Source: an uncultured Methanosarcinales archaeon (GTDB taxonomy: Archaea > Nanobdellota > Nanobdellia > Woesearchaeales > CAZYIM01). Taken from it: a stretch of DNA of 22,399 nt. The notes beneath the pieces were generated by a model. The model was not told the DNA's origin. It saw nothing but the letters and a program-made list of their open reading frames with translations, and made no database searches. Positions 1 through 22,399 of the stretch are shown here, in pieces (within the stretch, counting starts at the first letter, position 1; each line of letters starts with the position of its first letter). The translations under genes were made by a program, and so were the position numbers. The DNA lies in the NCBI GenBank assembly GCA_964647565.1, contig CAZYIM010000012.1, positions 1-22,399 of the forward strand. Reading direction: 5' to 3'.

Positions 1-556
1 ATGAAATATTAAAATCAAAAAAGTTTGATTTATTGGTTTTTGATTCATTAAGTAAAAGCATATTTTTAAGAACTTGATCAAAAGTACCTGGCGTCTGACG
101 AATAAAATCATGAATTTCTGCATTATGGCCATCAATGCTGAACATGATCATATCCCACTTCATCTTGATAATTTTGTTTATGTCAGATTCTGTCAATAAG
201 ACACCGTTGGTATTTATATTACCAAACATCTTCTTGGATTTGATCTTTTCCATAAGCTCTATTATTATCTTTTTTCGTATAAATGGTTCGCCACCTCCTG
301 AAATAAGCCATTTTCTTACACCCAATTTCGCGGATTCATCTACCAGGTCTAGTAATCTTTCATCAGATATCTCACACCACCTCTCCTGATGCTGATCGAA
401 TGAGGGCTTAATTTTCTTACGTTTTCTATATTCAATACGGGTTCCACACATTATACAATTAAGATTACATCTGTTGGTTGGATGTATCTCTATTGAAATA
501 GGGCCTTGGGGCTCATTAATAGCCCATCCAATAAGTCTGTTTACAGGTTCATCCAT
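1..556 (-). CDS. Radical SAM protein, Twitch-family paralog (3'-truncated by window edge; absent from ORF track)
   Basis: Manual translation from ATG at 556: MDEPVNRLIGWAINEPQGPISIEIHPTNRCNLNCIMC...SGGGEP...NTNG...KWDMIMFSIDGHNAEIHDFIRQTPGTF...; open to position 2. It has CxxxCxxC and the same RLxxW..P N-terminus as the other paralogs. Confidence 0.93.
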   Translation of the reverse strand, partial: MDEPVNRLIGWAINEPQGPISIEIHPTNRCNLNCIMCGTRIEYRKRKKIKPSFDQHQERWCEISDERLLDLVDESAKLGVRKWLISGGGEPFIRKKIIIELMEKIKSKKMFGNINTNGVLLTESDINKIIKMKWDMIMFSIDGHNAEIHDFIRQTPGTFDQVLKNMLLLNESKTNKSNFFDFNIS

Positions 557-569
557 TCTAAGCTTACCA

Positions 570-577
570 CACCTCCT
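570..577 (-). promoter_or_regulatory. Shine-Dalgarno-like site AGGAGGTG
   Basis: The plus strand reads cacctcct at 570-577, 13 nt upstream of ATG 556. The spacing is somewhat long. Confidence 0.5.
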
Positions 578-596
578 TTTACGGAAAAAATCTGAG

Positions 597-660
597 CTTT
601 AAAAGATTTTGGAAACATTTTGAGTGGATTTCTCCAGAAAAAAACATAACATTTAAAAAT
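597..660. promoter_or_regulatory. Divergent promoter region with TATA-like boxes
   Basis: TTTTAAAG on the minus strand (604-597) upstream of ATG 556, and TTTAAAAA on the plus strand (652-659) upstream of ATG 694. The AT-rich background lowers specificity. Confidence 0.35.
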
Positions 661-693
661 AAAAACACATTTTCACCACTATCCAGTACTAAA

Positions 694-2055
694 ATGGTTC
701 GTAAGCTAAAATCGTTGGGAAAATTATTGACATTCGGATTAAGTTCTCTATTCATATGCATGACTTCTTGCACAAAAAATATTCCATTTCAACCTGAAGA
801 TGAACTACTAAAACCAGGTATAGAACTTAACAAAATCAATCCCAATCAACCAAATACTGAAGATAATCTGGAAATGGCCATACAAGAATCCGACCAATAT
901 GACTTCTCATGGTATAAGAATGATTTAAAGTTATCTTCAAAAAACAGATTATTGACAAATAAAGTTATGAAGACAGACATATTATCAAGTTACACAGACC
1001 ACACAATAGAAGGATACACCTTCAGATGTGAGGCCGAAAATAAAGATGGGGCAACAGTTGAAGATTCTACAACAATAAATACAAAAAAATTAAATTTGGA
1101 AATAAAGGGAGTAAATATATTCAATCCCGGCCAAGAACCACCCCCTCGGATAGATGTGACCTTCAATACAGTTAATGAATTAAATCCCAACACTGCTTCT
1201 ATCTGGCAACTATATTTTCAAGATAATGAAAACTCAGAGGAAATTTTTGAACGGTATTCTGGTCATTTAACTCTTACTTTAACAGAAGATCATATAAGAT
1301 ATGAGATTAGAAAAGCAAAAGGATTGGGAATGAAGGTTATCACTTACCCAGTAATGGCACTAACATCGCCATCAGGAACTAACGGATATCATTATTGTAT
1401 TCCAGGATCATCTGGCTGGTTTGAAAATTACAGAAAAAAACTTGTAAAATTGGCTAATCTGGCTGAAGAAGAAAATGTTGACATGTTCTGCATCGGATCA
1501 GAATTGAGAATGTCAGAAAATAAAACGTCTGAATGGGAAAAAACAATACAAGAGGTCAAAAAAGTATTTTCTGGAGAAATTCTTTACTCTTTTCTTACCT
1601 GTCAGACAGAAGAGATAAACCAGATGAAAAATAGATCCTGGATCAAACATTTAGATTATATTGGATTCAGCAGTAATCTAGAAACTAGAGAAACCAATTA
1701 TGATCCTACAGTGTCATTCCTCACATCAAAATATTCTTTAATCCTTGATGAAATGGAAAATGTTTGTAATCTTCATAACAAAAAAGGAATAATAACTGAA
1801 ACTGGAGCTCGAAGCATTGATGGAGGAACAATAAGCCCCCGAGATTGGAACGAAAATGTGATGGATTTACAGGAACAGGCGGATTATTGTGAAGCGTTTA
1901 TGCGAGCAGTACAGGGAAGAACGACGTTTAAGGGTGTAATCTGGAATCATTTCCAAGTAGGCGGAGAGTTTAACACAGGAACAGATCATATGTATAATTA
2001 CAGCATTATTTGGAAACCTACTTTCAATGTACTGAAATCCTGGTTTAGAGATTAA
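694..2055 (+). CDS. Lipoprotein with C-terminal glycoside hydrolase family 113-like (clan GH-A TIM barrel) domain
   Basis: Signal peptide ending LFICMTS-C26. Motifs GMKVITYP, WFENYRKKLVKLANLAEEENVDMFCIGSEL (putative acid/base Glu), LDYIG, ITETGARS (putative nucleophile Glu) and DLQEQADYCEAF resemble GH113 beta-mannanase-like proteins. Confidence 0.75.
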   Translation: MVRKLKSLGKLLTFGLSSLFICMTSCTKNIPFQPEDELLKPGIELNKINPNQPNTEDNLEMAIQESDQYDFSWYKNDLKLSSKNRLLTNKVMKTDILSSYTDHTIEGYTFRCEAENKDGATVEDSTTINTKKLNLEIKGVNIFNPGQEPPPRIDVTFNTVNELNPNTASIWQLYFQDNENSEEIFERYSGHLTLTLTEDHIRYEIRKAKGLGMKVITYPVMALTSPSGTNGYHYCIPGSSGWFENYRKKLVKLANLAEEENVDMFCIGSELRMSENKTSEWEKTIQEVKKVFSGEILYSFLTCQTEEINQMKNRSWIKHLDYIGFSSNLETRETNYDPTVSFLTSKYSLILDEMENVCNLHNKKGIITETGARSIDGGTISPRDWNENVMDLQEQADYCEAFMRAVQGRTTFKGVIWNHFQVGGEFNTGTDHMYNYSIIWKPTFNVLKSWFRD

Positions 2056-3197
2056 TCAGTAAATTTATCATTTAGTGCTCTAAATTTGTCTCTGAGTCTT
2101 CTTCGATAGGTGATATCGCTGGGACAACATTTATGACAATGATCAAAAAGCTTTTTCTTGAGCATGTCCTTTCTGACTTGCTTCATCTTCCGACCATACC
2201 AGATTTCAGATAGGCTTTTTTCCTTGACATTATCTCCCTTGGTCAATAATCCACAATGTCCTGCAAGGCCATCAAACTTGATTGCCATATTATCGAATGG
2301 CTTGAAACATGTTGAGGAAAGGAAAGGATCTTTCTCAATGTCAGCATCATCCAAGATGACCTTAGATATCTTACCTGAACTCTTGACAAGATCCTGATCG
2401 AGATTGGTTCCATGAGCATAAAAGTTGTTATCTATCCTGTGCTTATAAGCCACAGTCTTTGCGTTTTCGATGATAGATGGTAAAAGATCTCTGTCCTCTT
2501 GGTCAAGCCTCAGATGCTCGCAGCCATTATGGAAAAGCATCAAGGGTTCAGTAAAGATATAAGAACACCCCAACGTGTGTGCAAATTCCACATAATCGAC
2601 TAAATGTTTATAATTCCTCTTGTTAATAATTACATTAAAATTAATCATGGGATCTGAACTTTTACGTTCTTTTTTGTACTCATTTAAGATTTTAACAGAG
2701 CGGATAGTTTTAACAAATGCACCTTTCTTGCCCCGCAGATGATCGTGGAGATCGGCTTTATGGCCATCGATTGAGAAATGAATTCTGTCCCAACCAATAT
2801 CCACAAGAGATTTAAGCTGTTCTTCTGTCCATAAGGTTCCATTTGTGGTCAAGATACCGAACATACCTCTTTCTTTAACACGTTTTAGCACAGGAATAAG
2901 TAGTTTTGGCTTTGCCAGGGGTTCATTAGCTCCCTCTATATTCCAAACCTTTACACCCAAGTCTGCTGCCTGATCTACCAGTTCAAGCCACCCCTTTATT
3001 TTCAAACCATATTTCCTGGTTTCTTTTACATGGTCTGAATCAGAACTCTGTCTACTGCAAGGAAGGCATCTCAGATTGCATATTTTGTGAAGTTCTACAT
3101 CTATCTGGAGGGGAGGTTGTTTTTCGCCTAAATACCAAGAGTAAAGACGTTTTATACGCTGCTTTTCAATAAGTGCAAATCTGGCTTCTGGTTGCAT
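2052..3197 (-). CDS. Radical SAM protein with Twitch (truncated SPASM) domain
   Basis: CNLRCLPC, GANEP, TTNG, GWDRIHFSIDG; C-terminal C-X17-C-X38-CxxCC. Confidence 0.93.
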   Translation of the reverse strand: MQPEARFALIEKQRIKRLYSWYLGEKQPPLQIDVELHKICNLRCLPCSRQSSDSDHVKETRKYGLKIKGWLELVDQAADLGVKVWNIEGANEPLAKPKLLIPVLKRVKERGMFGILTTNGTLWTEEQLKSLVDIGWDRIHFSIDGHKADLHDHLRGKKGAFVKTIRSVKILNEYKKERKSSDPMINFNVIINKRNYKHLVDYVEFAHTLGCSYIFTEPLMLFHNGCEHLRLDQEDRDLLPSIIENAKTVAYKHRIDNNFYAHGTNLDQDLVKSSGKISKVILDDADIEKDPFLSSTCFKPFDNMAIKFDGLAGHCGLLTKGDNVKEKSLSEIWYGRKMKQVRKDMLKKKLFDHCHKCCPSDITYRRRLRDKFRALNDKFTD

Positions 3198-3206
3198 TTT
3201 TATTGG

Positions 3207-4871
3207 TTAAATCTTTGTTGATTTTCTTTTATATATTTCAATAGTATATCTATGAGGGAGAAAATATACGTCATTTTTAATTGTATCTAATTTAGAGTAG
3301 GAATCCTTATCCTCAAAAAAGGAATTAATACAATCTTCTGCTGCAAAATAGTTCTCAGGTCTTGAGTCTATAATAGATTTGCCCTCAACCCAGAATAGAA
3401 AATAATCTGGTTTTTTATACTGATCGCGGTCACAGATCTTGGGAACGAGGTATTCTACCCCATATAATTCAACTAAAAATACTATTGGACTGAAATATTC
3501 AAAATCTGAGAGTAAAATCTCATATGATTTATTTTTATTCTCAACATCTTGAATTATACGTCTTAGGACTATATCTTGACCTAAAGATTTGTTCTGATAT
3601 ATAAAAACGCCATTACTCCATTCTTCAGACGTTACCCTATTACGAAATCTGAATCTATCAAAATATGTGTTCATCAAATCATTCGGATCGTCTTTTATCA
3701 AACTCATTGTGAGCTTACTGCTATAGCACAAAATAAAAAATTGGGAGATTCCGATCAGTACTATTATGGTGATAAAAATATTTCTCAAATGTTTTTTTGT
3801 TAACTGCATGACCGCAGCTGCAGTAATAATGGCAACAGGTATAACTAAGGGCATCATAAACCGCCAAGAACGGTTGTGTGATGCAATAAAAGTAAAAAAG
3901 ATATAAACAATGAACATTAGTGAAGTTAAGAACAATTTATTCTTTGAGCTGATTTTTTTATTAAACAGAAACATAATGAAGGTAATTAAGAAAATCGATC
4001 CAAAAAAATACAAAAGTTGATATTGAATAATTATCTTCGGCCAATAAAGAATGTTGGTAATATCAAACACACCATAAACTTGTTGAGTTGTCTGAAACTC
4101 TATTGACGTCTTCATCACACTTAAAATTTCTTCAGGATATCTAAAAAACCAAGTTAAGTATAAACCAACCGACAGGATGCTCGTAATTAATAAATTCTTT
4201 ATTTTCACTCGGAGTTTATTCTTTTCAGATTCAGAAATTAATTTGTGGAAAAAGATAAACAATACAGGACCTACTAAATATAATGCAGCTGTAGGTTTGA
4301 TTAAGGCAGTCAATCCTATGATTAAACCTAAAAGAATTGACTGCTTTGATTTTGTAAAGTTCTCTGTTTTGAGAAGCAAATACAGATCAAGGCATATCAT
4401 AGCGAGAAGTGCAAAATCACGGATATAAACTCTGGACATACCAAAAACCTGGGGATAAAAAGATACTAAAAATGCTGCCAGCAACCCTGTTTTTTCTGAA
4501 AATAATCTTGTGCCCAATAAAAAAGTACTTAATATGAGAAGGATGAAAAACATATTGTTAAGCATAAGTGCCCCGCCTACGCTACCACCAAAAGCGAAAA
4601 AGAATGGCTGGGTTATTAAATAAAATAAGGGCCCATAACAGGATCCGACCGGGCAATCAGACACTTTTAACACATTTAGCATATCTCCTTGTTTAAGAAG
4701 ATTATACATTCTCAAGCTAGTACTCAAATAAAACGCTGCATCTGCAGATGGAAGATTGTCATGTTTGCTCACTATATACAAATTATTCACCATATGGAAT
4801 AGAATTATTATGAATAAGATCAATAAGACTGCTTTTCGATTAAACGCGAATTGTTTAGACTTGTTGGGCAT
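3207..4871 (-). CDS. ArnT/PMT-like GT-C membrane glycosyltransferase
   Basis: About 11-13 hydrophobic helices, acidic first loop (PSADAAFY), YGPLFY, GLLAAFL..FYP.VFGMSR...DF, GLTALIK, RFMMP, and a soluble C-terminal domain ending IEIYKR. Confidence 0.85.
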   Translation of the reverse strand: MPNKSKQFAFNRKAVLLILFIIILFHMVNNLYIVSKHDNLPSADAAFYLSTSLRMYNLLKQGDMLNVLKVSDCPVGSCYGPLFYLITQPFFFAFGGSVGGALMLNNMFFILLILSTFLLGTRLFSEKTGLLAAFLVSFYPQVFGMSRVYIRDFALLAMICLDLYLLLKTENFTKSKQSILLGLIIGLTALIKPTAALYLVGPVLFIFFHKLISESEKNKLRVKIKNLLITSILSVGLYLTWFFRYPEEILSVMKTSIEFQTTQQVYGVFDITNILYWPKIIIQYQLLYFFGSIFLITFIMFLFNKKISSKNKLFLTSLMFIVYIFFTFIASHNRSWRFMMPLVIPVAIITAAAVMQLTKKHLRNIFITIIVLIGISQFFILCYSSKLTMSLIKDDPNDLMNTYFDRFRFRNRVTSEEWSNGVFIYQNKSLGQDIVLRRIIQDVENKNKSYEILLSDFEYFSPIVFLVELYGVEYLVPKICDRDQYKKPDYFLFWVEGKSIIDSRPENYFAAEDCINSFFEDKDSYSKLDTIKNDVYFLPHRYTIEIYKRKSTKI

Positions 4872-4884
4872 TTGTATACCATCT

Positions 4885-6108
4885 TCATGATTTTTTCTTT
4901 AAAAAAGGAAACTTAACTCCAATGCCACGAGGCTTATAAGTAGCTTTTCTAGGTTTCAAATACGTATCAAGTTCTTTTCTAATCTCCTGGACTTCAAACA
5001 CTCTCCAGACACAACAAGTAGCACATTCAGGGGGTAGCTTACGTGTCAATATCTGCTTTCTATACTGCTCAAAGTATGGACCGTACCAAAGCTCCTTCAA
5101 AGATTTATTTTTTATAGTGACATCTGTCTTCCAGACAAAATCATTGAAGCAAGCCGCAATATTTCCGTTTGCTATGATAGTTATGTGCGTCCACGGCTCA
5201 AAACAAGGTATTGATTTGAAGTTCTCAATAGGATCAGACTTAGTATCTTCGATGAGTTTCTCACCGTTTTCCATTTTTCTCCGTATTTTGATCTTGTCTG
5301 CCTCCTCCATCAATACCTCATGCATAGAGTTGGTCTTGTCAACATACCGCAAGTCTATGAATTTCTGCATGTTAGAATCTATCTTATATTTCTTAAGCAA
5401 GGGCAAGCAGGAGCTGATTATATCCTGGAACTCTCTCATCTGTTCCATGTTCATCTTGAGCTTTTCACCTTCCTTTGAAAAAACTGTCATTGGCAGCAAT
5501 AATATCTCATTACAATCCACCTCATTGGCAAGTTCCACAATATTTCGAAGATCTTTATAGTTCCTATTGGATATAACTGTATTGAATGAAATTCTTGGCA
5601 GATCTGACTTCTTCTTTTTCTTGAAATCTGATAACTGCTTGATGTTCTTGATGATACCATCGTAAGCTTCTGCACCTCTTAACTCGTTTTGCAGTTCTGG
5701 CGTCGAACCATCAATACTGACCTTTATTCTTGTCCACCCAATATCAACCAGGTTTTTAGTCATCTCAGGTGTCAGAAGGCTGCCATTCGTGACCAAATCC
5801 CCCTCCATACCATGCTTTCGGATTCGTTTCATGAGTTTAAAGGTTATTTCCCTGGATAGAGGTTCACCTCCGCCAACAAAAGCAATATCCCTGACTCCAA
5901 TCTCTGCAGCTTCATCTATCAGCTTAAGAAGACGCTGATCAGTCAACTCATTAGCATAGCGTTCCTTGAATTCTTTTTCTGAAACCGACTGTCGCCAACA
6001 ACTAGGACAATTGAAATTACATCTGTCTGTTGGAATAAGCTCAATGGTCACAGGAGGTTGAGGATTCCCCTTCGCCCACTCAATAAGACGTTTTGTTTTC
6101 AAGTTCAT
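4885..6108 (-). CDS. Radical SAM protein with Twitch domain (start more likely 6108 than 6153)
   Basis: CNFNCPSC, GGGEP, VTNG, GWTRIKVSIDG; C-X17-C-X41-CxxCC. MNLKTKRLIEW from 6108 aligns exactly with MDEPVNRLIGW of the 556 paralog and removes a 14-nt overlap. Confidence 0.92.
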   Translation of the reverse strand: MNLKTKRLIEWAKGNPQPPVTIELIPTDRCNFNCPSCWRQSVSEKEFKERYANELTDQRLLKLIDEAAEIGVRDIAFVGGGEPLSREITFKLMKRIRKHGMEGDLVTNGSLLTPEMTKNLVDIGWTRIKVSIDGSTPELQNELRGAEAYDGIIKNIKQLSDFKKKKKSDLPRISFNTVISNRNYKDLRNIVELANEVDCNEILLLPMTVFSKEGEKLKMNMEQMREFQDIISSCLPLLKKYKIDSNMQKFIDLRYVDKTNSMHEVLMEEADKIKIRRKMENGEKLIEDTKSDPIENFKSIPCFEPWTHITIIANGNIAACFNDFVWKTDVTIKNKSLKELWYGPYFEQYRKQILTRKLPPECATCCVWRVFEVQEIRKELDTYLKPRKATYKPRGIGVKFPFLKKKS

Positions 6109-6139
6109 TTTGAATCCATAATCAATTTTAAATTTATGA

Positions 6140-7078
6140 CTAAATAAGTCCATTATTTTCCAATTTTACAATTGTCATATCTGCAAGCATTTGATGCGCT
6201 TTTTTCGAAGGATGTACATCATGTCGGGAAATTATCATTTCTTGATTCCGACTATCAAACTCCCCAAAAGACATCCATAATATATTTTCTTCATCACACA
6301 AGTCTATTATTCTGTCCCCATAGGTCTTTGTATAATCAATCACAAATAAAACAAAATTATATTCCTGAGCCAGAGTCTTGAGCTCAAGAATGGGTTTCTT
6401 AATATTAACAAATTCACGATCAACATATGAGTCATTCATTAATATCTGTTCCTGGAATTCATTCTTGTATTTCTCCAACTCAGATTTCATATTGTACTCC
6501 TCTCCATCGGAAATGTGAATTTCATTTAAGGGTATTGGGTAAAAGATATCATCACCATTCACAACCACAGTAACTAATTCTGGTGAAAACTCAAGTCCTT
6601 TTAATTTTAAAAGCTCAGACTCCTGAAGAGTATTATAGCCAGGAATGCCAAAATTGAGAACTTCCCACGCGCCACCCGTTTTAGCTCTTAGCTGCGTCTC
6701 AAGTTGAAAAGGATATGTCTCATCCTCCTCCAATCCCTGACCAAAGACAAATGAGTCTCCAAGCACAATAATTCTTTTAACACTATCAGGTTTACGAAGA
6801 GTAACCTCTTTACCCCTAAAACCGTGAGAATTGGTTTTAATTACAGTTTCAGGAATGCGAACATAAAAACCATCAAACACTTGGGTATGATTTGGCTTTA
6901 GCACTTGACGAAGTATACTATTATTATGGAGTTCAAATGCCTCAAATATGTATCTTGGTTTTTTAGGGATATAATATGAATACCATAAAAAAATACACGG
7001 GATAATGATGAGTATACATATCAATAGAATCGCTAATTTGAATCCCCTTTGATTTTTTGATTTTTTGCTTGATATCAT
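6140..7078 (-). CDS. Membrane-anchored SGNH/GDSL hydrolase-like esterase or acyltransferase (start likely 7078)
   Basis: One N-terminal TM helix, NSHGFR, LGDSFVFG (catalytic Ser), NFGIPGY, DVHP (Asp-x-His). ATG 7078 forms an ATGA overlap with the upstream stop at 7077-7075. Confidence 0.87.
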   Translation of the reverse strand: MISSKKSKNQRGFKLAILLICILIIIPCIFLWYSYYIPKKPRYIFEAFELHNNSILRQVLKPNHTQVFDGFYVRIPETVIKTNSHGFRGKEVTLRKPDSVKRIIVLGDSFVFGQGLEEDETYPFQLETQLRAKTGGAWEVLNFGIPGYNTLQESELLKLKGLEFSPELVTVVVNGDDIFYPIPLNEIHISDGEEYNMKSELEKYKNEFQEQILMNDSYVDREFVNIKKPILELKTLAQEYNFVLFVIDYTKTYGDRIIDLCDEENILWMSFGEFDSRNQEMIISRHDVHPSKKAHQMLADMTIVKLENNGLI

Positions 7079-8205: not shown

Positions 8206-8211
8206 TTTGTA

Positions 8212-10898: not shown

Positions 10899-10916
10899 GC
10901 GTTACTGGAACCAACG

Positions 10917-10949
10917 TGGATTTAAATAATTTGACATTTTTTAAATCCA
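10917..10949. promoter_or_regulatory. Imperfect inverted repeat overlapping a TATA-like box (candidate promoter/operator)
   Basis: TGGATTTAAA (10917-10926) and TTTAAATCCA (10940-10949) are perfect 10-bp arms, extending to 13/14 matches around a 5-nt loop. ATTTAAAT lies 22-29 nt upstream of ATG 10898. Confidence 0.55.
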
Positions 10950-10978
10950 AATATGGTCGCGCCACGAACAGGTAATGC

Positions 10979-13383: not shown

Positions 13384-13387
13384 AATA

Positions 13388-14884: not shown

Positions 14885-14954
14885 TTTATATTTAGTCTAA
14901 CTTCTTTTTTAGTTCAGTAATTGATCAACCACACCAACCCCGCCAATAGTATTG

Positions 14955-15018
14955 TGAAGTTGATGAAAGTATAAAAAAGTTTTTATAATCTATCACCGTG
15001 GACTAATTTAGAATCACT
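14955..15018. promoter_or_regulatory. Divergent promoter region (back-to-back TATA-like boxes)
   Basis: GTATAAAAAAGTTTTTATAAT (14969-14989) reads TTTTATAC on the minus strand and TTTATAAT on the plus strand. TTGATG-N18-TATAAT also fits a sigma70 promoter, so the type is ambiguous. Confidence 0.45.
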
Positions 15019-15028
15019 CTGATTAAAA

Positions 15029-16855
15029 ATGCCCAGGGCGTTAAAATATAACAAAATCTTACTCCTAGTCTTAATAATTATATTCATAATATTCACCTCA
15101 ATATGGCTTTATTTTGATAATTTTGTTATAACTCATGATCAATCACTATATTTAGTGGATAGTGTTCGAATATATAATGATATGCGAGGATCCGAGAATA
15201 GTATAACTAAGTTATTTACATCTCAAAGTTGGAACCCTCCCGCCATCCCATTTATCACGGCAGTTTTATATCATTTTACTGGAATGTCTCCAGACATAGC
15301 AATTTTAACTATTTCCAGTTTGTTTGTTATGATTTTAGCTCTCTCCACATATTCTATTTGCAAAAGAATAAACTACGAGAAAATAGGTGTACTGGCAGTA
15401 TTCATTGTTCTTACATATCCTATAGTCTTCTTCCATTCAAGGCTCTATATGCTTGATTTGCCATTAACAGCTCTTGTAACTTTGGGTTTTTTACTATTAT
15501 TTATGTCTGAAAACTTCACAATACGGAAATATTCAATAGCAATAGGTATCATATTTGCAGTAGGTCAATTGACAAAGATATATTATTTAGGATATTTCCT
15601 ACTCCCATTAATATTTATATTCTTTAGAACAATAAAATCCAGTAAACTTATTAAGCTTGATAAAACAAGGCGAATAATTAACCTCGCCATATCAATAGTA
15701 ATTGGTGTTTTATTCTCAATTATTTTCTTCCTGTTCCGATTAAAGGAAAGAACCCTACAAAAATTTTTTTCGCTAAACACAAATCCCAGCATAGGTACTT
15801 GGCAAATTGAGGCAATAATTGTCAGCATTCGAACGCAAATACCCAACATCATAGTATTTTTTATATTTTGCTTCCTTCTAATAACACTAATTAAGCAAAT
15901 AAAAAATAAAAAATTTTCTAAGGGTAATAGGATATTAATAATCACTACATTAGTCATTTCTACAAGTGTGTTTATGTTTTTACATTTTAAAACCCAAGAA
16001 TATCTACAATTAGCTTATGGCGAACGGATGGTTCCCTTTTACTGGTTTTTTGCTAGGTTTGTGGACACACAAATTTCCTTTTTCTATTCAGCTCTCTTAA
16101 TAATAGGATTTATATTATATATTAGATTGTGCGATATGAAAAATAAGAAAATCATACTAATTTGGCTTCTCGGCCCGTTTTTATATGCCGCTTTTTTTTT
16201 GTATATTAGCAGTATACGCCACACCATGCCTATTCTGCCAGCCGCAGCCATAATTACCGCTTCAGCAGTTATAGCAATAAAACGAAAACATTATGCTAGG
16301 ATATTGGTAATATTAATTCTTACAACAGGATTATCTATATTTATCATCAATTCTGTCGCGATAGAAAATGAAAAAACTTATTCAACCTTTGATTCTTTCA
16401 GATTGATTATCCACAATGAAAGACGTCTAAGATCCTCAACAGCAGTCAAATTTCCTTGGAATCATTCAGATGCTATAGTAAATTATGTTTATAATCACTC
16501 TAGAGCTCAATCGCTAGATAAACCTGTATCTGTTCTTATTGTCTCAAACAATGATGTTTTTTTAAACTCACAAATTTGTAATTATTATTCTCTGTTAAAT
16601 AATTATCCTATTACGTGGAATGATGTCGAGTTAACAAATGCAAATAGTCTGGCTAAATTAAAAAATTATGACTACATCATTGTTGAACTTTCGGACTTGG
16701 ATTATACAGGTTTTCAAACCACTACAAACTATAACCAACTGCTTAAATCGGTTAGAGAACTGCTTCTTGAACAATACAAGGATCAATTTATCCATCTTAA
16801 ATATTTCCAGCTATCTAAAAAAACTAGTGTCGAAATACTCCTCCCAAGAAAATAA
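15029..16855 (+). CDS. ArnT/PMT-like GT-C membrane glycosyltransferase
   Basis: Polytopic; THDQSLY acidic loop, NPPAIPF, YPIVFFHSRLYMLDLPLTA, GQLTK, RHTMPILP, and a soluble C-terminal domain. Paralogous to 3207-4871. Confidence 0.87.
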   Translation: MPRALKYNKILLLVLIIIFIIFTSIWLYFDNFVITHDQSLYLVDSVRIYNDMRGSENSITKLFTSQSWNPPAIPFITAVLYHFTGMSPDIAILTISSLFVMILALSTYSICKRINYEKIGVLAVFIVLTYPIVFFHSRLYMLDLPLTALVTLGFLLLFMSENFTIRKYSIAIGIIFAVGQLTKIYYLGYFLLPLIFIFFRTIKSSKLIKLDKTRRIINLAISIVIGVLFSIIFFLFRLKERTLQKFFSLNTNPSIGTWQIEAIIVSIRTQIPNIIVFFIFCFLLITLIKQIKNKKFSKGNRILIITTLVISTSVFMFLHFKTQEYLQLAYGERMVPFYWFFARFVDTQISFFYSALLIIGFILYIRLCDMKNKKIILIWLLGPFLYAAFFLYISSIRHTMPILPAAAIITASAVIAIKRKHYARILVILILTTGLSIFIINSVAIENEKTYSTFDSFRLIIHNERRLRSSTAVKFPWNHSDAIVNYVYNHSRAQSLDKPVSVLIVSNNDVFLNSQICNYYSLLNNYPITWNDVELTNANSLAKLKNYDYIIVELSDLDYTGFQTTTNYNQLLKSVRELLLEQYKDQFIHLKYFQLSKKTSVEILLPRK

Positions 16856-16905
16856 TAGCTCTTTTCGAAACATAGGTTAGTACAATAATAGTTTTGCTAA
16901 TTCTT

Positions 16906-18036
16906 TTAATTAGATGAATTCCAAGCAGTAATTTCAAATAAAATACGTGTAAGTTGATTAGCAATAAACATATGGGTTCGTTTATTCGGGTGAGGATCAT
17001 ATTTGAAAGATAAATCATGCTTTTTACTATGATTTCTTATTGCTGGTGCCAAGTCATAATATGTGATGTTTTCATCAATATCATTCAAGTAATCCAAAGA
17101 ATTATAGGGATCAATATTTAATAAGATGAACTTAATATTGTTTTCTCTACAAATTTCATTGAACTCATTTATGATAGTATTACCCCTATTTTGCATATAG
17201 GTTTTAGAAGCATCTTTAGTTGAAGAATAATTATATCTTGACATAATATTCTCCCAAAGTTCTTCGTCATGTTTTTCAAATCTCTGTTTCAAGATAAGTA
17301 ATTGAATATGATAATTAAGATAACTCAGGAGATATGAGTTTTTTAAAAGATAATTATCCCTCTTATTGAAAAACGGGTCATCCCTCTCGAGATATAATGT
17401 CGTGGGCGCACTCTTAGGGTTTTTATAGCTCACATTTTCAATGTTATCCAAACCAATCTCCAAAAGATTAGTTGAATATCTCTCAATACTTGCAAAAGAG
17501 AGCAACAAGATAACATAATCTGACGAATATTTGACGCCTTCCTTCATAAAAAGCAATAACTCTTGATCGATACCATATCCAGGAACTCCGAAATTTATTA
17601 TTTCAAGGTCATCATTCTCGTTTTCGAGAATGTCCGTGAATCTTTCGCCGTATTTTACGCCTTCGCCAAATGTCAAACTATCACCAAAAGCCAATATTCT
17701 TATTTTGTTATGGGGTTTAGCGTAACTGTATTCCTTATCTCTAAGACCTTTTGAATTTATTTTGTATATTACAGAAAAATCTGAAGTCGTGGCCAAGACT
17801 TGTACATTAGGTCTAAGCCAATAAGATCTGTTATCGTGAATAAATAACTCTGCAGGTAATCTTTCAGGATTTTTTAATTCCTTCAAATACAATCCATAAT
17901 CTATACCTTCCCAGGTTCCAATTAGCCTCCATACTATTTCAGCCATCAATAAAATAATAACTACTGTGAAAAGCAGAACAAGGAGCCTCTTTATCAAATG
18001 AGTTTTTGTTCTCTTTTTCATTCTAAATAGGGTCAT
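16906..18036 (-). CDS. Membrane-anchored SGNH/GDSL hydrolase-like protein
   Basis: TM helix ending AEIVWR, INSKGLRD, FGDSLTFG, NFGVPGYGIDQ, DPHP. Confidence 0.87.
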   Translation of the reverse strand: MTLFRMKKRTKTHLIKRLLVLLFTVVIILLMAEIVWRLIGTWEGIDYGLYLKELKNPERLPAELFIHDNRSYWLRPNVQVLATTSDFSVIYKINSKGLRDKEYSYAKPHNKIRILAFGDSLTFGEGVKYGERFTDILENENDDLEIINFGVPGYGIDQELLLFMKEGVKYSSDYVILLLSFASIERYSTNLLEIGLDNIENVSYKNPKSAPTTLYLERDDPFFNKRDNYLLKNSYLLSYLNYHIQLLILKQRFEKHDEELWENIMSRYNYSSTKDASKTYMQNRGNTIINEFNEICRENNIKFILLNIDPYNSLDYLNDIDENITYYDLAPAIRNHSKKHDLSFKYDPHPNKRTHMFIANQLTRILFEITAWNSSN

Positions 18037-18048
18037 ACAATAGATATT

Positions 18049-19203
18049 CTATCGTTGGATAAGTTCTTTAATGGTTTTTGTATCAATCTTAGACAGAAGA
18101 TCTCGGCGAAGCTTTCTAGTATTGATCACAATTCCTGAAGCACAAGTTTTACAGTAGTCAGGTAAAGTACCCCTTATCATTCTCCTTCTCACCCGATTAA
18201 AGTAATCCCCAAACCAAACTTCTTTAAGAGATTTCTTGTGAAGTCTTGGAGCATAGTCCTGGAAATTATTCAATCGACACTCAACTACATGCCCTGATGC
18301 TCGTATCTCAAGATTAAGCCAAGGTTCAAAGCAGGGTGCAGACAGCAAGGTCTTTGCATATTTTCCCCGTTCAGTTATATCTTCCACCAAAACTTGATCC
18401 ATATCTTCCTTGTCAATGAACCTGCCCTCATTTAAGCTTTCAAGATTGGTTGACACCCCTAATGTTCTGGCTAGTTTGATGGCTTCAGGCAACAGGGCTT
18501 GGAATTCCTTCTTTTGTTTCTGATTCAGTTTCAGTTTAGCCCCTTCAACTGACCAGACATTAAGAGGTTCAAAACATACCCCGCAGGTCTTCAGATCCGC
18601 ACCCCATTTTACCAGCTCACCCACTCGGTTGTAATTTCTGTTAGTCAGGACAGTATGGAAACTGTATATAGGTTGTTTTTTGCGAAGTTTCTTCTTCCAA
18701 TAAGCAAAAAGTCTCATAGCCTCTACACTCTTGTCAAAGCTTCCATCAACTCCAGTCAGATGATCATGGACCTCTGCGTTTGAGCCTTCCAGGCTAAAAA
18801 GGATCTGGTCCCAGCCTATCCTTACTAATTCTTCAATATATTCTGGCTTAAATAAAGTACCATTTGTTGTTAGACAGCCATACATATTATATTTCTTTAT
18901 CAACCGCATAAGTTCCATCATGAATGCAGGTCTTATCATAGGTTCCCAGCCACCAGCTATCTGCCATTCCAATACCCCCATCTTACCAGCCTCATGAACA
19001 AGTTTAATGAGTCTCTCTTCCTTTAAGGCTCTGCTATAATTGGTCAATCCTATTCTGTATGGATCTCTCTGCCAACAGAACTTACATTTTAAGTTACACC
19101 CAAAAGTAGGTTCTAGATCAATCCGAATAGGTGGTGCTTCACATCCAGATGCCCAAATAGCCAATCTTCTAATCTTCTCCTGTTCGATTTTATTCCCCAA
19201 CAC
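18049..19203 (-). CDS. Radical SAM protein with Twitch domain (GTG start)
   Basis: RRLAIWASG..PP, CNLKCKFC, GGWEP, TTNG, GWDQILFSLEG; C-X17-C-X41-CxxC. Confidence 0.92.
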   Translation of the reverse strand: MLGNKIEQEKIRRLAIWASGCEAPPIRIDLEPTFGCNLKCKFCWQRDPYRIGLTNYSRALKEERLIKLVHEAGKMGVLEWQIAGGWEPMIRPAFMMELMRLIKKYNMYGCLTTNGTLFKPEYIEELVRIGWDQILFSLEGSNAEVHDHLTGVDGSFDKSVEAMRLFAYWKKKLRKKQPIYSFHTVLTNRNYNRVGELVKWGADLKTCGVCFEPLNVWSVEGAKLKLNQKQKKEFQALLPEAIKLARTLGVSTNLESLNEGRFIDKEDMDQVLVEDITERGKYAKTLLSAPCFEPWLNLEIRASGHVVECRLNNFQDYAPRLHKKSLKEVWFGDYFNRVRRRMIRGTLPDYCKTCASGIVINTRKLRRDLLSKIDTKTIKELIQR

Positions 19204-19225
19204 AAAATAAAGAGGATAATCACGA

Positions 19226-19300
19226 ATATAAAAAGTTTGCTGAAGTTGCTAGCCCGAATATTTAAGTAAATTATTTAAACGGTCTAAACATGAATCACTA
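19226..19300. promoter_or_regulatory. Divergent promoter region with TATA-like boxes
   Basis: TTTTATAT on the minus strand (19233-19226) lies 23-30 nt upstream of GTG 19203. ATTTAAAC on the plus strand (19273-19280) lies upstream of ATG 19327. Confidence 0.45.
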
Positions 19301-19326
19301 AGGGGTAATGGATTTATACATAAAAA

Positions 19327-20619
19327 ATGAAAATAAAAGATAAGTTAATAATTATATCTGTTTCATCAATATGCATCATCCTTGTTTTCATATTGCTTTA
19401 TTTCTTAGTTACCGAACAAAGATTAGAAAATAATCAAAAGGTAGTTCTAATAGGCATAGATGGCCTTGAATGGGATGTAATCTATCCCCTGATCGAGAAG
19501 GGTGAACTACTAAATATCAAACGATTAATGGACGATGGGATCTATGGTAACTTGACATCGATAATACCCTCTAAATCACCTGTTGTATGGACTACTATTG
19601 CCACTGGAAGAACTCCTGCAGACCACGGAATAACTGACTATCTTATTAATAACGAAACTGCTTCTTCAAAACATAGGAAAGTTGATGCCATTTGGAATAT
19701 TCTGAACCGTGATGGCTATTCTACGGGTATTGTGGGATATTATTCTACCTGGCCCGTTGAAAAGGTTGCTGGATATATGATCAGCGATAGATTTCGAATA
19801 ATGATTGAAAAAAAACAAGAAGATAAAAAGGATTTTGAATCTTATTCTATTGCAAATAACAAAGGATTAGCCTATCCTTTCAGTCTTATGAACAAGTATA
19901 TTCAAAATATAGCTAAAAAAGGATTTCTTTCAGAAAATAACAATATAGAAATCAAAGATGATGATTCTTATGACAAAGCATTAACAGACATATACTTCAG
20001 TGCATACAGAGCTGATAGAATAAATATGGATATAGCCAAATATCTTCTTATTAATGAACCACAGCCTGATTTATTCATGGTTTATCTTCCGGGAATAGAT
20101 TGGATATCACATTATTTCTGGAGATTTTATCAACCCGAAATAAATTATACCCATTTCCCCACTCCTGTTACAAAACAGGAAAAGGAAAGGTTTGGCGAAA
20201 TAATTCTTGATTACTATAAAGTTATAGACGGAATTATTGGACACTTACAAACCCTGGTTGAAGAAGATACCACCATCATAGTCATATCAGACCACGGATT
20301 CCAGGCATTACCCTGGCTACTTAATAATAATTCTTATTATATATCTGGTCTGCATAAGCATCAGGGTGTTTTTATTGCTCACGGACCAACGATTAGAACT
20401 GTGGGAGAGATAAATGACATAAGCGTATATGATATCACCCCATTAATATTGTACATTAAGGGGCTTCCTCCCGGTAAAAAGATGATTCGTGAATTTCCAG
20501 AAGAGATTATTAAAGGGGCGTATAGAATGAAGGAGCAAAATGGTTTAAACCAGGAAGGGACAAGGGATACGTCCAATTCATATAGGGCAAAACTTAAATC
20601 TCTGAGATATGTAAAATAA
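19327..20619 (+). CDS. Membrane-anchored alkaline phosphatase superfamily protein (type I phosphodiesterase/nucleotide pyrophosphatase-like)
   Basis: N-terminal TM helix, IGIDG, PSKSPVVWTTIATG (Ser at the nucleophile position), DWISH, SDHGF, GLH..QG, and C-terminal KLKSLRY. Confidence 0.87.
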   Translation: MKIKDKLIIISVSSICIILVFILLYFLVTEQRLENNQKVVLIGIDGLEWDVIYPLIEKGELLNIKRLMDDGIYGNLTSIIPSKSPVVWTTIATGRTPADHGITDYLINNETASSKHRKVDAIWNILNRDGYSTGIVGYYSTWPVEKVAGYMISDRFRIMIEKKQEDKKDFESYSIANNKGLAYPFSLMNKYIQNIAKKGFLSENNNIEIKDDDSYDKALTDIYFSAYRADRINMDIAKYLLINEPQPDLFMVYLPGIDWISHYFWRFYQPEINYTHFPTPVTKQEKERFGEIILDYYKVIDGIIGHLQTLVEEDTTIIVISDHGFQALPWLLNNNSYYISGLHKHQGVFIAHGPTIRTVGEINDISVYDITPLILYIKGLPPGKKMIREFPEEIIKGAYRMKEQNGLNQEGTRDTSNSYRAKLKSLRYVK

Positions 20620-20620
20620 A

Positions 20621-21220
20621 ATGAAAAACAAAATAAATCTTTCATTACTCTTGTTTCTCTCTATTTTAATCATTAGCTCTTGTACACCATCTTCAAATAA
20701 AATAAATCGAATTGAAGATTTAGGATTATCATTTGAAGGGATAGAAGATTTTGTGATAAAGGATCAATATGTTGAATTGAATAATCAAAACGAATACAAA
20801 AAGATAATAGCTGAAAAAGGAAATCTTAGTATTAGGATTGAAACAACTCATTTCAACAGCAGTACAGAGGCTACAAACTATATCAACAACAGAATAAATA
20901 TGTTTGAATCAATATTCTATCCAGCATCCTCCCCGTATCCAGGAGATGTCAGTCGAGTAATTGACTGTCCTGAGGAATTCAAGCCAAAAAAAGGTACTGC
21001 CCAGAATAACAATATTGAGTTTGTCTATTATGCAACTTATGGGACCGAAAGAAGAGGATATGGATCTTGTTCTTGGGATAATGTCCATTACAAAAGCGTA
21101 ATAGCATTTATTCATTGTAATTCAAGCAACAAAATATTTCAGTTTGAAATATTTATACCCGTTAATGACAAAACAGGTATGATGGAGAAAATAATTAATT
21201 CAATAACATGTACAAAATAG
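20621..21220 (+). CDS. Hypothetical lipoprotein
   Basis: Signal peptide ending LIISS-C21; starts 1 nt after the upstream stop; four further Cys. No recognised domain. Confidence 0.8.
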   Translation: MKNKINLSLLLFLSILIISSCTPSSNKINRIEDLGLSFEGIEDFVIKDQYVELNNQNEYKKIIAEKGNLSIRIETTHFNSSTEATNYINNRINMFESIFYPASSPYPGDVSRVIDCPEEFKPKKGTAQNNNIEFVYYATYGTERRGYGSCSWDNVHYKSVIAFIHCNSSNKIFQFEIFIPVNDKTGMMEKIINSITCTK

Positions 21221-21263
21221 TTCAATAATTCATAAAAAGCGATATTAACAATCAGAAAAAAAT

Positions 21264-22399
21264 ATGAAAAACAGCAAAATAAGGTTCATATCAGGGATAT
21301 TTGTTATAGTTTTGATATTAACGGGTTGCCAAATAGAAACGAATCCAGTTAGCAACAAATGGATCATACTTCCTAATGACTTCAAATGCTCCGAATGTAA
21401 TATTATCTTCATCACTGCTGATGCCTTAAGAGCAGATCATCTAGGATCCTATGGATATCCATTAAATACAACACCATCCATAGATACATTTGCCCAAGAC
21501 TCGGTAATTTTCACAAATTCTGTCAGTCAATCAGGAACAACATTATGGTCTCTTCCTTCGTTATTTAAATCTATTCTACCAACAGAGATAGATTCAAGAT
21601 CATCTTCAAAAAGCTTTGTGGAGATTCTACAAGAAAAAGGCTATTACACAGCTGCAATCCTGGGTCACGAGTATTACAAGAAGGTTTTTTATGAAGTAAA
21701 AGGCTTTGACTTCGAGGATGATAATTCCCCAATAAAACGAAATGCAACTATATTGACCAATTCAGTGATTGGTTGGCTTAATGATACACCTAAACCGCCT
21801 TTCTTCCTGTGGGTGCATTATCTCGAGCCACATATGCCATACAAGCCTCCTAAGAGTTTCTTTGAAAAATTCTACAATAAAAGTCATGACGAATTAACTT
21901 TCTTGGATGTCAGTCCCTGCGGAATGTGTATAGAGAATTTTACCCGGGCTCATGATATACTAAAAGAAAACCTAACCGAAGTTGAGTATCAGGTTTATGG
22001 TAAAAAAGTAGGTCTTACTGATCGTGAACTGGCCCAAATAAAGGCGTTGTATGATGCCAACATTTATTACTTAGACATGAATTTGGGTCGTCTTTTTAAG
22101 TATCTTAAAGCATCGGGTTTATTGGAAAATACAATAATTATTTTCAGTTCGGATCATGCTGAAATGATGGGTGAAAAAAAAATTATCGATCATAATGAAC
22201 TTTACTATGACGGAATACATGTTCCCTTGATAATAAGACATCCTAAATTAGGAAAAAAAATAATTGATAACCCCGTATCTTTATTAAACATCTACCCCAC
22301 CATTCTCGAAATTGCAGATATTGAATATGACCCTTCACTAATAAAGGGACGAAGTTTATTTCTGAATACAAAGAATATTCAGATTGCAACATATCATCC
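21264..22399 (+). CDS. Sulfatase-like alkaline phosphatase superfamily lipoprotein (3'-truncated; absent from ORF track)
   Basis: Manual translation from ATG 21264: MKNSKIRFISGIFVIVLILTGC...CSECNIIFITADALRADHLGSYGY..NTTPSID...SQSGTTLWSLPSLF...PFFLWVHYLEPHMPY...LYDANI..LD...SSDHAE...HVPLII...GRSL; open to the window end. Confidence 0.9.
   Translation, partial: MKNSKIRFISGIFVIVLILTGCQIETNPVSNKWIILPNDFKCSECNIIFITADALRADHLGSYGYPLNTTPSIDTFAQDSVIFTNSVSQSGTTLWSLPSLFKSILPTEIDSRSSSKSFVEILQEKGYYTAAILGHEYYKKVFYEVKGFDFEDDNSPIKRNATILTNSVIGWLNDTPKPPFFLWVHYLEPHMPYKPPKSFFEKFYNKSHDELTFLDVSPCGMCIENFTRAHDILKENLTEVEYQVYGKKVGLTDRELAQIKALYDANIYYLDMNLGRLFKYLKASGLLENTIIIFSSDHAEMMGEKKIIDHNELYYDGIHVPLIIRHPKLGKKIIDNPVSLLNIYPTILEIADIEYDPSLIKGRSLFLNTKNIQIATYH

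Follow-up and report, generated by a model that had tools for sequence, protein, structure and literature searches.

A stretch of 22,399 nucleotides from an archaeal metagenome-assembled genome (MAG), called the window here and meaning the whole of that stretch, encodes ten radical S-adenosylmethionine enzymes (rSAMs) among its 18 main open reading frames (ORFs). Our interpretation, held with slightly better than even confidence for its two parts taken together, is that the window forms the left edge of a very large locus for cell-envelope glycans or glycolipids in a marine DPANN archaeon of Woesearchaeales type, and that lipid- or nucleotide-linked sugars would be tailored there by radical chemistry in the cytoplasm, then exported, transferred by GT-C glycosyltransferases and decorated on the outside. 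The initial annotation had described the window as a glycan or glycolipid tailoring system. The assignment to glycans is well supported by the genes in the flank and by fusions of rSAM modules to glycosyltransferases and to a PseC-like enzyme in relatives, but the window is not a self-contained unit: it lies at one end of a group of loci that together span about 144 kb and hold 56 rSAM genes, an island in which about four in ten genes encode an rSAM.

The window corresponds to positions 1-22399 of contig C12 (65,507 bp). Its left end is the contig end and its right end is a run of N inside the gene g18, the C-terminus of which is therefore not reliably read. The G+C content is 0.34 in the window compared to 0.384 genome-wide. 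The source MAG measures 2.68 Mb in 86 contigs, is 86.9% complete and carries an archaeal small-subunit rRNA (1405 bits); the 40 nearest ('same order') genomes have sizes of 0.6-2.1 Mb. Eight DNA sequencing runs carry the sequence, every one a marine or seawater metagenome and together from two studies; no RNA run was listed among the sequencing-run matches.

Radical SAM enzymes and exported proteins of the window

A Pfam search placed PF04055 (Radical_SAM) above its cut-off in ten of the 18 ORFs (g1, g3, g5, g7, g8, g9, g10, g11, g12 and g15), the number given in the initial annotation, and the CX3CX2C motif was found in all ten. None of them has a transmembrane-like N-terminus, the single hydrophobic stretch being that of g10 at residue 33, which agrees with the earlier statement that the rSAMs lack signal peptides. 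The other eight genes (two GT-C, two SGNH, two AlkP-type, one GH113-like and one of no family) had been called membrane or exported proteins, and each of the eight indeed has an N-terminal transmembrane segment or a lipobox-like Cys. The genes are as follows.

2..556, minus strand: g1, twitch-family rSAM, N-terminal 185 amino acids, cut by the contig end (PF04055, 71.8 bits)
694..2055, plus strand: g2, GH113-like glycoside hydrolase with a lipoprotein-like N-terminus (PF22612, 128 bits)
2052..3197, minus strand: g3, twitch-type rSAM (PF04055 and PF13186; CX3CX2C at residue 40)
3207..4871, minus strand: g4, GT-C glycosyltransferase, PMT_2/GT39-like (PF13231, 40.3 bits, cut-off 26.1; eight transmembrane-like segments)
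4885..6153, minus strand: g5, twitch-type rSAM, reference for the searches (PF04055, 77.8 bits; PF13186, 32 bits)
6140..7108, minus strand: g6, membrane-anchored SGNH/GDSL esterase or acyltransferase (PF13472, 45.7 bits; one N-terminal transmembrane segment)
7075..8205, minus strand: g7, twitch/SPASM-variant rSAM (PF04055 and PF13186)
8212..9840, minus strand: g8, rSAM of class-B architecture (PF04055 only; no detectable B12 sequence signature)
9837..10898, minus strand: g9, twitch/SPASM-variant rSAM (PF04055 and PF13186)
10979..11998, minus strand: g10, rSAM with an AhbD/NirJ-like core and a SPASM-like C-terminus with eight Cys (PF04055, 82 bits)
11998..13440, minus strand: g11, B12-binding rSAM, class B (PF02310, 63.4 bits; PF04055, 81 bits)
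13388..14884, minus strand: g12, B12-binding rSAM, class B (PF02310, 55.2 bits; PF04055, 89 bits)
15029..16855, plus strand: g13, GT-C glycosyltransferase, PMT_2 (PF13231, 32.4 bits, cut-off 26.1; 12 transmembrane-like segments)
16906..18036, minus strand: g14, membrane-anchored SGNH-like protein, weak (PF13472, 31.4 bits, cut-off 32.9; one transmembrane segment)
18049..19203, minus strand: g15, twitch-type rSAM (PF04055, 82 bits; PF13186)
19327..20619, plus strand: g16, membrane-anchored AlkP-superfamily protein, phosphodiesterase/pyrophosphatase-like (PF01663, 115 bits; N-terminal transmembrane segment)
20621..21220, plus strand: g17, lipoprotein-like protein of no known family, 199 amino acids (lipobox-like Cys)
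21264..22397, plus strand: g18, sulfatase-fold AlkP-superfamily lipoprotein-like protein (PF00884, 166 bits)

The genes from g12 to g3 form a single minus-strand row of 12.8 kb with a sole gap of 80 bp, and the largest intergenic gap within the window is 144 bp. The plus strand reads TCAT at 7075-7078 and 9837-9840 and CATTA at 11996-12000, which on the coding strand gives ATGA and TAATG, confirming the translational coupling reported earlier for these three junctions.

Six of the rSAMs had been described as twitch paralogs. This holds for g3 (C297-X17-C315-X38-C354-X2-C357), g5 (C317-X17-C335-X41-C377-X2-C380) and g15 (C291-X17-C309-X41-C351-X2-C354), which share the C-terminal pattern C-X17-C-X38-41-C-X2-C, while g7 (Cys at 296, 304, 314, 317, 354 and 357) and g9 (273, 291, 330, 331, 334 and 335) are variants with four to six Cys and the C-terminus of g1 is lost to the contig end. 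In g5 and 25 homologues the invariant C-terminal Cys are C317, C335, C377, C380 and C381, and the full seven-Cys SPASM motif is absent from g3, g5, g7, g9 and g15. A profile of the g5 family, compared with solved structures, matched the rSAM cores of TigE, SkfB, BlsE, PqqE and MoaA; the sole structure matching its C-terminal domain was BtrN (residues 166-237, E 2.3e-7). Because there are too few Cys for a SPASM domain and both the spacing and the profile match are BtrN-like, the twitch assignment is correct despite the SPASM label given by Pfam. The cut-off of 170 bits of the NCBIfam model NF033640 (N_Twi_rSAM) was not reached by any of the six (53-88 bits), which does not exclude a twitch domain since the model covers an N-terminal-twitch subfamily.

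The N-terminal extension is about 25-35 amino acids only. Directly before CX3CX2C all twitch paralogues carry a motif in which a basic/aliphatic pair is followed by W, by G and by P-P or G-P. In the alignment of 26 sequences W26 and P34 hardly vary, and this W/G/P motif may be a signature of the family. Since homologues align to g5 from about residue 15, its translation may in fact begin at the second Met (residue 16). The truncated g1 aligns to residues 15-182 of g5 at 40% identity, and an ORF at the end of another contig (C17:1-555, plus strand) matches residues 193-398 of g5 and is possibly the missing C-terminal half of g1. Going by these two complementary half-genes, which are the whole of the basis, reversed C12 and C17 may be neighbours in one locus of about 120 kb; a search for an exact overlap of 11-200 bases between the two ends found none.

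Three further rSAMs had been called B12-binding. For g11 and g12 the combination of a PF02310 Rossmann domain and an rSAM core predicts class B enzymes that bind cobalamin, but g8 has no PF02310 match and is placed there by its modelled fold only. The best NCBIfam models for g11 were HpnJ (185 bits, cut-off 578) and BchE (178 bits), and its translation likely begins at Met20, near position 13383. A paralogue of g12 in the same genome lies at C12:38505-39995 (42% identical). All NCBIfam matches of g8 are class-B families, far under their cut-offs. Its AlphaFold2 model (pLDDT 73) has the two-domain class-B architecture, and the Foldseek matches, all at a TM-score of about 0.5, were led by AprD4, followed by TsrM, MgmA, OxsB and TokK. 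AprD4 is an aminoglycoside diol dehydratase. Paralogues of g8 are present on C17 and orthologues in two foreign loci (L045 and L030). The SPASM-like designation of g10 agrees with its eight C-terminal Cys, but its Pfam SPASM match is partial (model positions 1-43 of 67; 18.7 bits, cut-off 21.5). It scored 130 bits against TIGR04545 (cut-off 500), and no close orthologue was present among the fetched loci (best 28%). No rSAM of the window exceeded the cut-off of a characterised class B equivalog (HpnJ, BchE, PhpK, GenK-type and others), and the top NCBIfam matches of the window (W_rSAM_matur, AhbD, NirJ, PqqE, HpnJ and BchE) scored between one quarter and one third of the respective cut-offs.

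Among the exported proteins, g2 has its lipobox-like Cys behind a hydrophobic N-terminus. The two proteins annotated as SGNH differ in strength: g6 passes the PF13472 cut-off of 32.9 bits and has GDS at residue 117, while g14 has GDS at residue 118 but falls just under that cut-off. The C-terminal Asp/His block is D-x-H in both. Translation of g6 probably starts at 7078, which gives the ATGA overlap with g7; a metagenome scan with g6 gave 62 pattern matches, of which none was confirmed. No Pfam match was found for g17, the Atlas neighbours of which are unnamed 'lipoprotein' clusters. The formylglycine motif C/S-x-P-x-R is absent from g18, which has SGTT at the aligned place.

Glycan genes around the rSAM arrays

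Glycan-assembly genes, including kinds that the initial annotation had proposed to look for, were found on C12 beyond the window: a Dol-P-sugar-synthase-like GT2 (Dol-P, dolichyl phosphate), Wzx, Wzm/Wzt, a GT4 glycosyltransferase and more GT-C and AlkP-type genes. In total the remaining 43 kb of C12 (22-65 kb) contain 12 rSAMs (seven twitch/SPASM-type and five class B), four PMT_2 and five GT2 proteins (one of 792 amino acids), GT4, Polysacc_synt (Wzx, 108 bits), three sulfatase-fold AlkP-type proteins (one being the tail of g18) and one Phosphodiest protein, two class-I methyltransferases and one NTP_transf_5 protein. At 59-63 kb, ABC2_membrane, ABC_tran and Wzt_C (76 bits) adjoin the 792-amino-acid GT2 and a GT4, so that exporter or flippase genes and glycosyltransferase genes lie in the same locus, outside the window. 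A GT2 of 226 amino acids adjoins a PMT_2 gene, and its best models were AglJ (134 bits, cut-off 325), PpgS and a Dol-P-hexose transferase, all below their cut-offs; from this neighbourhood the GT-C enzymes are predicted to use polyprenyl-phosphate donors. AglB (STT3) is encoded elsewhere, on C16, in a separate and more conventional sugar cluster. The C12 flank also has a small Peptidase_S24-like ORF.

The same gene mix occurs again on C13 (about 40-64 kb) and on C17 (all 54.7 kb), with AsnB-type amidotransferases, a polysaccharide deacetylase, LPG_synthase_TM, an arylsulfotransferase and aldo-keto reductases (AKR) as additional genes. By Pfam, C12 has 22 rSAM genes, C13 has 11 (TYW1 left out) and C17 has 23, which gives the total of 56. 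Genome-wide, local BLAST against Pfam-labelled cluster proteins identified 57 twitch/SPASM-type and 40 class-B-type ORFs, together 97 of the 2446 ORFs of at least 100 amino acids. A six-frame search with PF04055 scored 66 matches from 117 first-look candidates in this genome and 3-54 in the 40 same-order genomes. An rSAM lies within three ORFs of 9/12 GT-C, 7/12 SGNH and 6/11 AlkP genes compared to 145/2231 other unlabelled ORFs, in a comparison that uses cluster-derived labels and a handful of loci.

Several further genes were observed on these and smaller contigs. A full-length GcpE/IspG (477 bits) lies between rSAM genes on C13 (L015:18241-19287, plus strand; about 43.2-44.3 kb of the contig), where a GGR-like gene is also present. 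IspG is the HMBPP synthase of the methylerythritol phosphate pathway, and its presence is unexpected as archaea normally take the mevalonate route. Two consecutive rSAMs on C13 consist of a core and a separate SPASM ORF with a four-base overlap (L016:2128-2925/2922-3302 and L016:3346-4146/4143-4529), and are either true split genes or two identical-looking frameshifts. An arylsulfotransferase (ASST) gene (L016:8632-9816, C13) amid rSAM and SGNH genes hints at sulfation, even with the formylglycine motif missing from the 'sulfatase' paralogues. An rSAM cluster on C17 includes a 933-amino-acid AKR-TPR fusion (L018:10606-13407), adjoined by a weakly AKR-like protein with a 4Fe-4S dicluster domain (L018:13404-14462). 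C35 (25.3 kb) has five class-B-type rSAMs, two GT-C and two carbamoyltransferases. Further small rSAM clusters are located on C40 and C29, and C40 has the genome's best anSME-like matches, which are sub-threshold.

A collection of 5.8 billion proteins gave 131 matches to g5, about 80 of them at 45-74% identity. All are from uncultured archaea; those that are named are labelled 'archaeon' or Aenigmarchaeota and none is characterised. In the 40 same-order genomes the nearest relative is about 31% identical. The family profile matched 1,095 clusters (50% identity) at E<=1e-30 among 1.84 billion representative proteins. Two Atlas clusters carry the taxon label 'Viruses', which was not substantiated for close relatives: a scan of viral contigs for the g5 family gave 18 pattern matches, of which none was confirmed.

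For the five complete twitch rSAMs of the window, the nearest foreign orthologue is 46-65% identical and the nearest paralogue in the same genome 32-41% (g3, 52% vs 40%; g7, 60% vs 40%; g9, 46% vs 32%; g15, 60% vs 41%). Because the foreign orthologues are closer than the own paralogues, the paralogues must be old and individually conserved and do not represent a recent burst. Gene order is also conserved, as a GT2 followed by three rSAMs is found both at C12:59582-53722 and at L045:307-4277. Foreign loci were chosen by homology to g5 alone (13 from genomes and 43 from metagenomes), and 32 of these, some being near-duplicates, are at least 8 kb. Tandem runs of at least five rSAMs occur in 29 of the 32, the longest run being 14. 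Any glycosyltransferase is present in 18 of these loci, GT2 in 13, AKR in eight, carbamoyltransferase in five, MFS in three, and DegT and ABC-2 in two each; in L023 and L068 an ABC2 protein and its ATPase adjoin the arrays. The arrays are often headed by a GT2 of about 296 amino acids, and for six of these the best NCBIfam model was AglG (120-154 bits, cut-off 440). AglG is a glucosyl-dolichyl-phosphate glucuronosyltransferase. What is particular to the window is the extreme genome-wide expansion, with about 97 rSAM ORFs, and the close interleaving of rSAMs with GT-C, SGNH and AlkP genes, seldom seen in the foreign loci. The co-occurrence of GT-C, SGNH and AlkP genes with rSAMs that the initial annotation had looked for in other genomes was thus strong inside this genome but limited to four, three and one of the 32 foreign loci, respectively.

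Small ORFs were observed in several arrays. Directly 3' of the g5 orthologue, several Aenigmatarchaeota-type arrays encode a coiled-coil protein of about 100-118 amino acids with a conserved amphipathic C-terminal motif, at the following positions.

L030:11217-11573: coiled-coil ORF after the g5 orthologue
L050:11148-11453: coiled-coil ORF after the g5 orthologue
L052:11189-11512: coiled-coil ORF after the g5 orthologue
L062:5438-5788: coiled-coil ORF after the g5 orthologue

In L022, L024, L047, L056 and L057, the ORF before the array-head GT2 encodes a different Glu/Lys-rich coiled-coil protein. The coiled-coil proteins of the arrays might be chain-length rulers or scaffolds. An array-head GT2 of 366 amino acids (L060:17482-18582 and L031:15521-16621, both minus strand) matches the twitch-domain model NF033640 in its C-terminal part (residues 287-357) and has no rSAM core. 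L031 bears the label of a Syntrophomonadaceae MAG, pointing to either a transfer into bacteria or mis-binning.

The link to sugars was also seen when loci were picked independently of g5. Stretches dense in rSAMs were selected in five other same-order genomes by PF04055 density alone, and in four of the five these stretches sit in sugar clusters with GT2, GT4, DegT, carbamoyltransferase, deacetylases, AsnB and PMT_2, as well as NeuB, a CMP-sugar synthetase-type gene, a GDP-mannose dehydratase and a teichoic-type transferase. In the fifth genome, both stretches have S-layer-like and type IV pilus-type genes, and one of them adds a GT2-rSAM fusion and a GT28-type gene. LPG_synthase_TM genes are present in rSAM loci both here and in same-order genomes. 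Three fusions in the same-order genomes join an rSAM to a sugar enzyme: Glyco_tran_28_C with rSAM and SPASM (659 amino acids), DegT with rSAM and SPASM (654 amino acids, the DegT part being PseC/LegC/WecE-like at 194 bits) and GT2 with rSAM (781 amino acids). A search for longer proteins with g5 gave six matches, of which three are GT1/GT4-rSAM fusions; the GT4-rSAM proteins P0122 and P0123 (E 3e-49 and 2e-45) are 31-32% identical to g5 across 90% of its length. Of 22 long forms examined among the top 150 representatives of the g5 family, ten have two to four rSAM modules per polypeptide, which suggests that several enzymes act on one substrate. One is an rSAM-Phosphodiest fusion (P0204) without a transmembrane segment and with the same domain type as g16, one is an ABC ATPase-rSAM fusion, and four have no extra domain; the remaining six are discussed below.

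Proposed pathway and competing explanations

From gene content, topology, orthology, the conserved arrays and the fusions, we infer each chemical step of the following pathway. A Dol-P-sugar-synthase-like or AglG-like GT2 would load a sugar onto dolichyl phosphate, or sugars linked to nucleoside diphosphates (NDP-sugars) would be used directly. The rSAMs, the cytoplasmic location of which is supported, would then tailor nucleotide-linked or, more likely, dolichyl-phosphate-linked sugars; the set in the window would consist of about six BtrN-like twitch enzymes with a single predicted auxiliary cluster, alongside one SPASM-like and three class-B enzymes. The twitch enzymes would, by analogy, abstract hydrogen from a sugar carbinol carbon to give keto-sugars. 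These could be transaminated (DegT), dehydrated, decarboxylated, or re-reduced by AKR or short-chain dehydrogenase/reductase enzymes with net epimerisation. C-methylation would fall to the class-B enzymes, as would deoxygenation or ring contraction in the manner of AprD4, HpnJ or Cds; for the rSAMs Cds and HpnJ, a review (PMC13459092) gives ring contraction of lipid-bound sugar head groups as the proposed reaction. Products would be flipped or exported by the Wzx or Wzm/Wzt proteins of the flank and then transferred on the outer side of the membrane by g4 and g13, the GT-C enzymes of the window, after which the anchored SGNH proteins (O-acyl groups), the AlkP-type proteins (phospho-substituents) and the GH113-like protein (trimming) would finish the polymer.

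A number of observations weigh against this pathway. The curated NCBIfam cut-offs were reached by none of the ten window rSAMs, and hence no reaction is assigned. The window contains no genes for NDP-sugar synthesis. C12 lacks a housekeeping gene, so that binning and paralogy with C13 are the grounds for assigning it to the MAG. The model of g5 (pLDDT 87.8) is alike to peptide maturases (SuiB, SkfB, PqqE, CteB and anSME) and to sugar enzymes (BlsE and DesII), with TM-scores of 0.46-0.58 and with MoaA also among the matches in this range, so the predicted fold does not decide between a peptide and a sugar as substrate. The six long forms left out above are rSAM-TPR fusions, hinting at protein partners. 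The enrichment of GT-C, SGNH and AlkP genes near rSAMs has the narrow basis already given, and these three kinds of gene are found in only 4/32, 3/32 and 1/32 foreign loci, many arrays having AKR, MFS and carbamoyltransferase genes that could equally well serve a soluble glycoside.

Such a product is the core of one alternative, which we regard as unlikely: the arrays would make a secreted, aminoglycoside-like glycoside or cyclitol, with GT-C, SGNH and AlkP as neighbouring but separate envelope functions. The BtrN-like twitch domains, the AprD4-like g8, the PseC/DegT aminotransferases fused or adjacent to rSAMs and the frequencies of carbamoyltransferase (5/32), AKR (8/32) and MFS (3/32) compared to GT-C (just 4/32) are consistent with it. 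However, in this genome the rSAM genes are intermixed with membrane GT-C and SGNH genes at the level of single genes and are coupled to them in translation, the contig encodes Wzx and a Wzm/Wzt pair with a Wzt_C carbohydrate-binding domain, rSAMs are fused to GT4 and to an ABC ATPase, and the array-head GT2s resemble enzymes of Dol-P-glycan synthesis. We give equally little credence to the rSAMs being protein or peptide maturases that introduce thioether or C-C crosslinks, epimerisations or modified residues into the co-encoded exported enzymes or into an unrecognised ribosomally synthesised and post-translationally modified peptide (RiPP). The NCBIfam and Foldseek neighbours include W_rSAM_matur, WgkB, StsB, SuiB, SkfB and PqqE, the ratio of rSAMs to exported proteins in the window is near 1:1, and the rSAM-TPR fusions would fit a protein substrate. 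Against this, the Pfam search detected a PqqD/RiPP recognition element (RRE) domain (PF05402, E<=0.01) in none of the ten rSAMs, the window gaps of at most 144 bp leave no room for a precursor, the small ORFs of the foreign arrays are Glu/Lys-rich coiled coils and not Cys/Ser-rich cores, most foreign arrays have at least ten rSAMs with almost no exported proteins, and the fusion partners are sugar enzymes.

Two specific forms of maturation were rejected. As to sulfatase maturation by an anSME, TIGR03942 scores in the genome do not exceed 98.5 bits (reached on C40; cut-off 349), the listed window rSAMs score 20-29 bits, and the C/S-x-P-x-R motif is missing from all eight sulfatase/AlkP proteins examined. 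For a RiPP, no RRE, precursor or C39-type exporter was seen. The initial annotation had named characterised cofactor, heme or RiPP families, or a precursor with an exporter just outside the window, as findings that would speak against glycans; no curated cut-off for these families was reached, and inspection of the 43 kb beyond the window revealed no precursor, RRE or RiPP exporter.

Remodelling of membrane lipids, either of isoprenoid tails or of glycolipid head groups and possibly of host-scavenged lipids, in the manner of Tes, Gms, Cds and HpnJ, appears quite improbable. HpnJ is the best model for g11, whose matches also include a ladderane-lipid family of B12 rSAMs, LPG_synthase_TM genes occur in the loci, the GGR-like gene and IspG lie on C13, and the ring contraction of lipid sugar head groups proposed for Cds and HpnJ (PMC13459092) offers a model. 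The scores are nonetheless far under the cut-offs (185 vs 578 bits), the Tes structure (7tol) is a poor match for g5 (TM-score 0.39), and the neighbouring genes serve polymer assembly and export, not lipid synthesis. The head-group version, moreover, overlaps with the tailoring of envelope sugars proposed here instead of contradicting it.

Building on sugar tailoring, we tentatively suggest, with rather less than even confidence, that DPANN archaea possess an oxygen-independent 'radical toolkit' for making part of their cell surface, with 10-25 specialised twitch and class-B orthologues, each kept across phyla and acting serially on one Dol-P sugar or glycan to give hyper-modified sugars, and that in the present genome this toolkit has expanded and been coupled to an expansion of GT-C, SGNH and AlkP genes. 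Its products would be C-methylated, deoxygenated, amino, carbocyclic or C-C cross-linked sugars of a kind new to glycobiology. The approximately 97 rSAM ORFs, roughly 4% of all ORFs, would then possibly serve surface diversification for host attachment or virus evasion.

Glycan loci, GT-C enzymes, twitch rSAMs and class-B rSAMs are each familiar as parts, and it is their combination and scale that are new to the literature searched: a search of sources outside subscription journals found no published description of rSAM arrays in DPANN glycan loci. To our knowledge, sugar-acting rSAMs are known almost solely as single steps of antibiotic pathways. In contrast, dozens of distinct, anciently diverged rSAMs are found here within surface-glycan loci, amounting to about one ORF in 25. 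If glycan tailoring is indeed their function, they would represent a large block of unexplored enzymology, imply a new class of archaeal surface carbohydrates, and help to explain why genome-reduced symbionts spend coding capacity on iron-sulfur, SAM- and B12-dependent enzymes. The GT4-, GT2-, GT28- and DegT-rSAM fusions supply enzyme-substrate hypotheses that are directly testable.

Comparison with known systems

The twitch rSAMs show the closest similarity to BtrN, the 2-deoxy-scyllo-inosamine dehydrogenase of butirosin synthesis (PDB 4M7S/4M7T), with which they share the CX3CX2C core and the C-terminal domain with the pattern C-X17-C-X38-41-C-X2-C. The auxiliary-cluster ligands of BtrN (C169, C187, C232 and C235) have a spacing that matches the pattern in g3, g5 and g15. 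The step catalysed by BtrN is followed by an aminotransferase (BtrS), and the DegT-type aminotransferase fused to an rSAM relative parallels this order. BlsE and DesII, both twitch carbohydrate rSAMs, are among the best fold matches of the g5 model. The window enzymes differ from BtrN in that they are 350-420 amino acids long with an N-terminal W...G...PP motif not seen in the BtrN comparison, in that sequence similarity is confined to the twitch domain, and in that 10-25 distinct paralogues occur per surface-glycan island whereas antibiotic clusters have single enzymes. For the class B rSAMs that act on sugars (GenK/Fom3-type, AprD4 and HpnJ), the similarity lies in the PF02310 and PF04055 domains of g11 and g12 and in the two-domain fold of g8. 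The scores are however far below the cut-offs, g8 has no detectable B12 motif, and about 40 ORFs of this type are present in a 2.7-Mb genome.

At the level of the locus, a polyprenyl-P- or Dol-P-type GT2 beside a PMT_2-type GT-C is an arrangement shared with the GtrA/GtrB/Gtr, ArnC/ArnD/ArnT and Agl (AglJ, AglG) systems. ArnD is a precedent for tailoring a lipid-linked sugar prior to flipping, and polysaccharide-deacetylase genes occur in the related loci. The present locus differs in the GT2 scores (134 vs 325 and 120-154 vs 440 bits), in that no GtrA-type flippase was identified and in that AglB is on C16; we know of no Gtr, Arn or Agl system with rSAM enzymes. Finally, ABC2_membrane, ABC_tran and Wzt_C together with glycosyltransferases on C12 resemble Wzm/Wzt-dependent glycan pathways, from which the locus is distinguished by the position of these genes outside the window and by the rSAM tailoring, which the known Wzm/Wzt-dependent systems lack.

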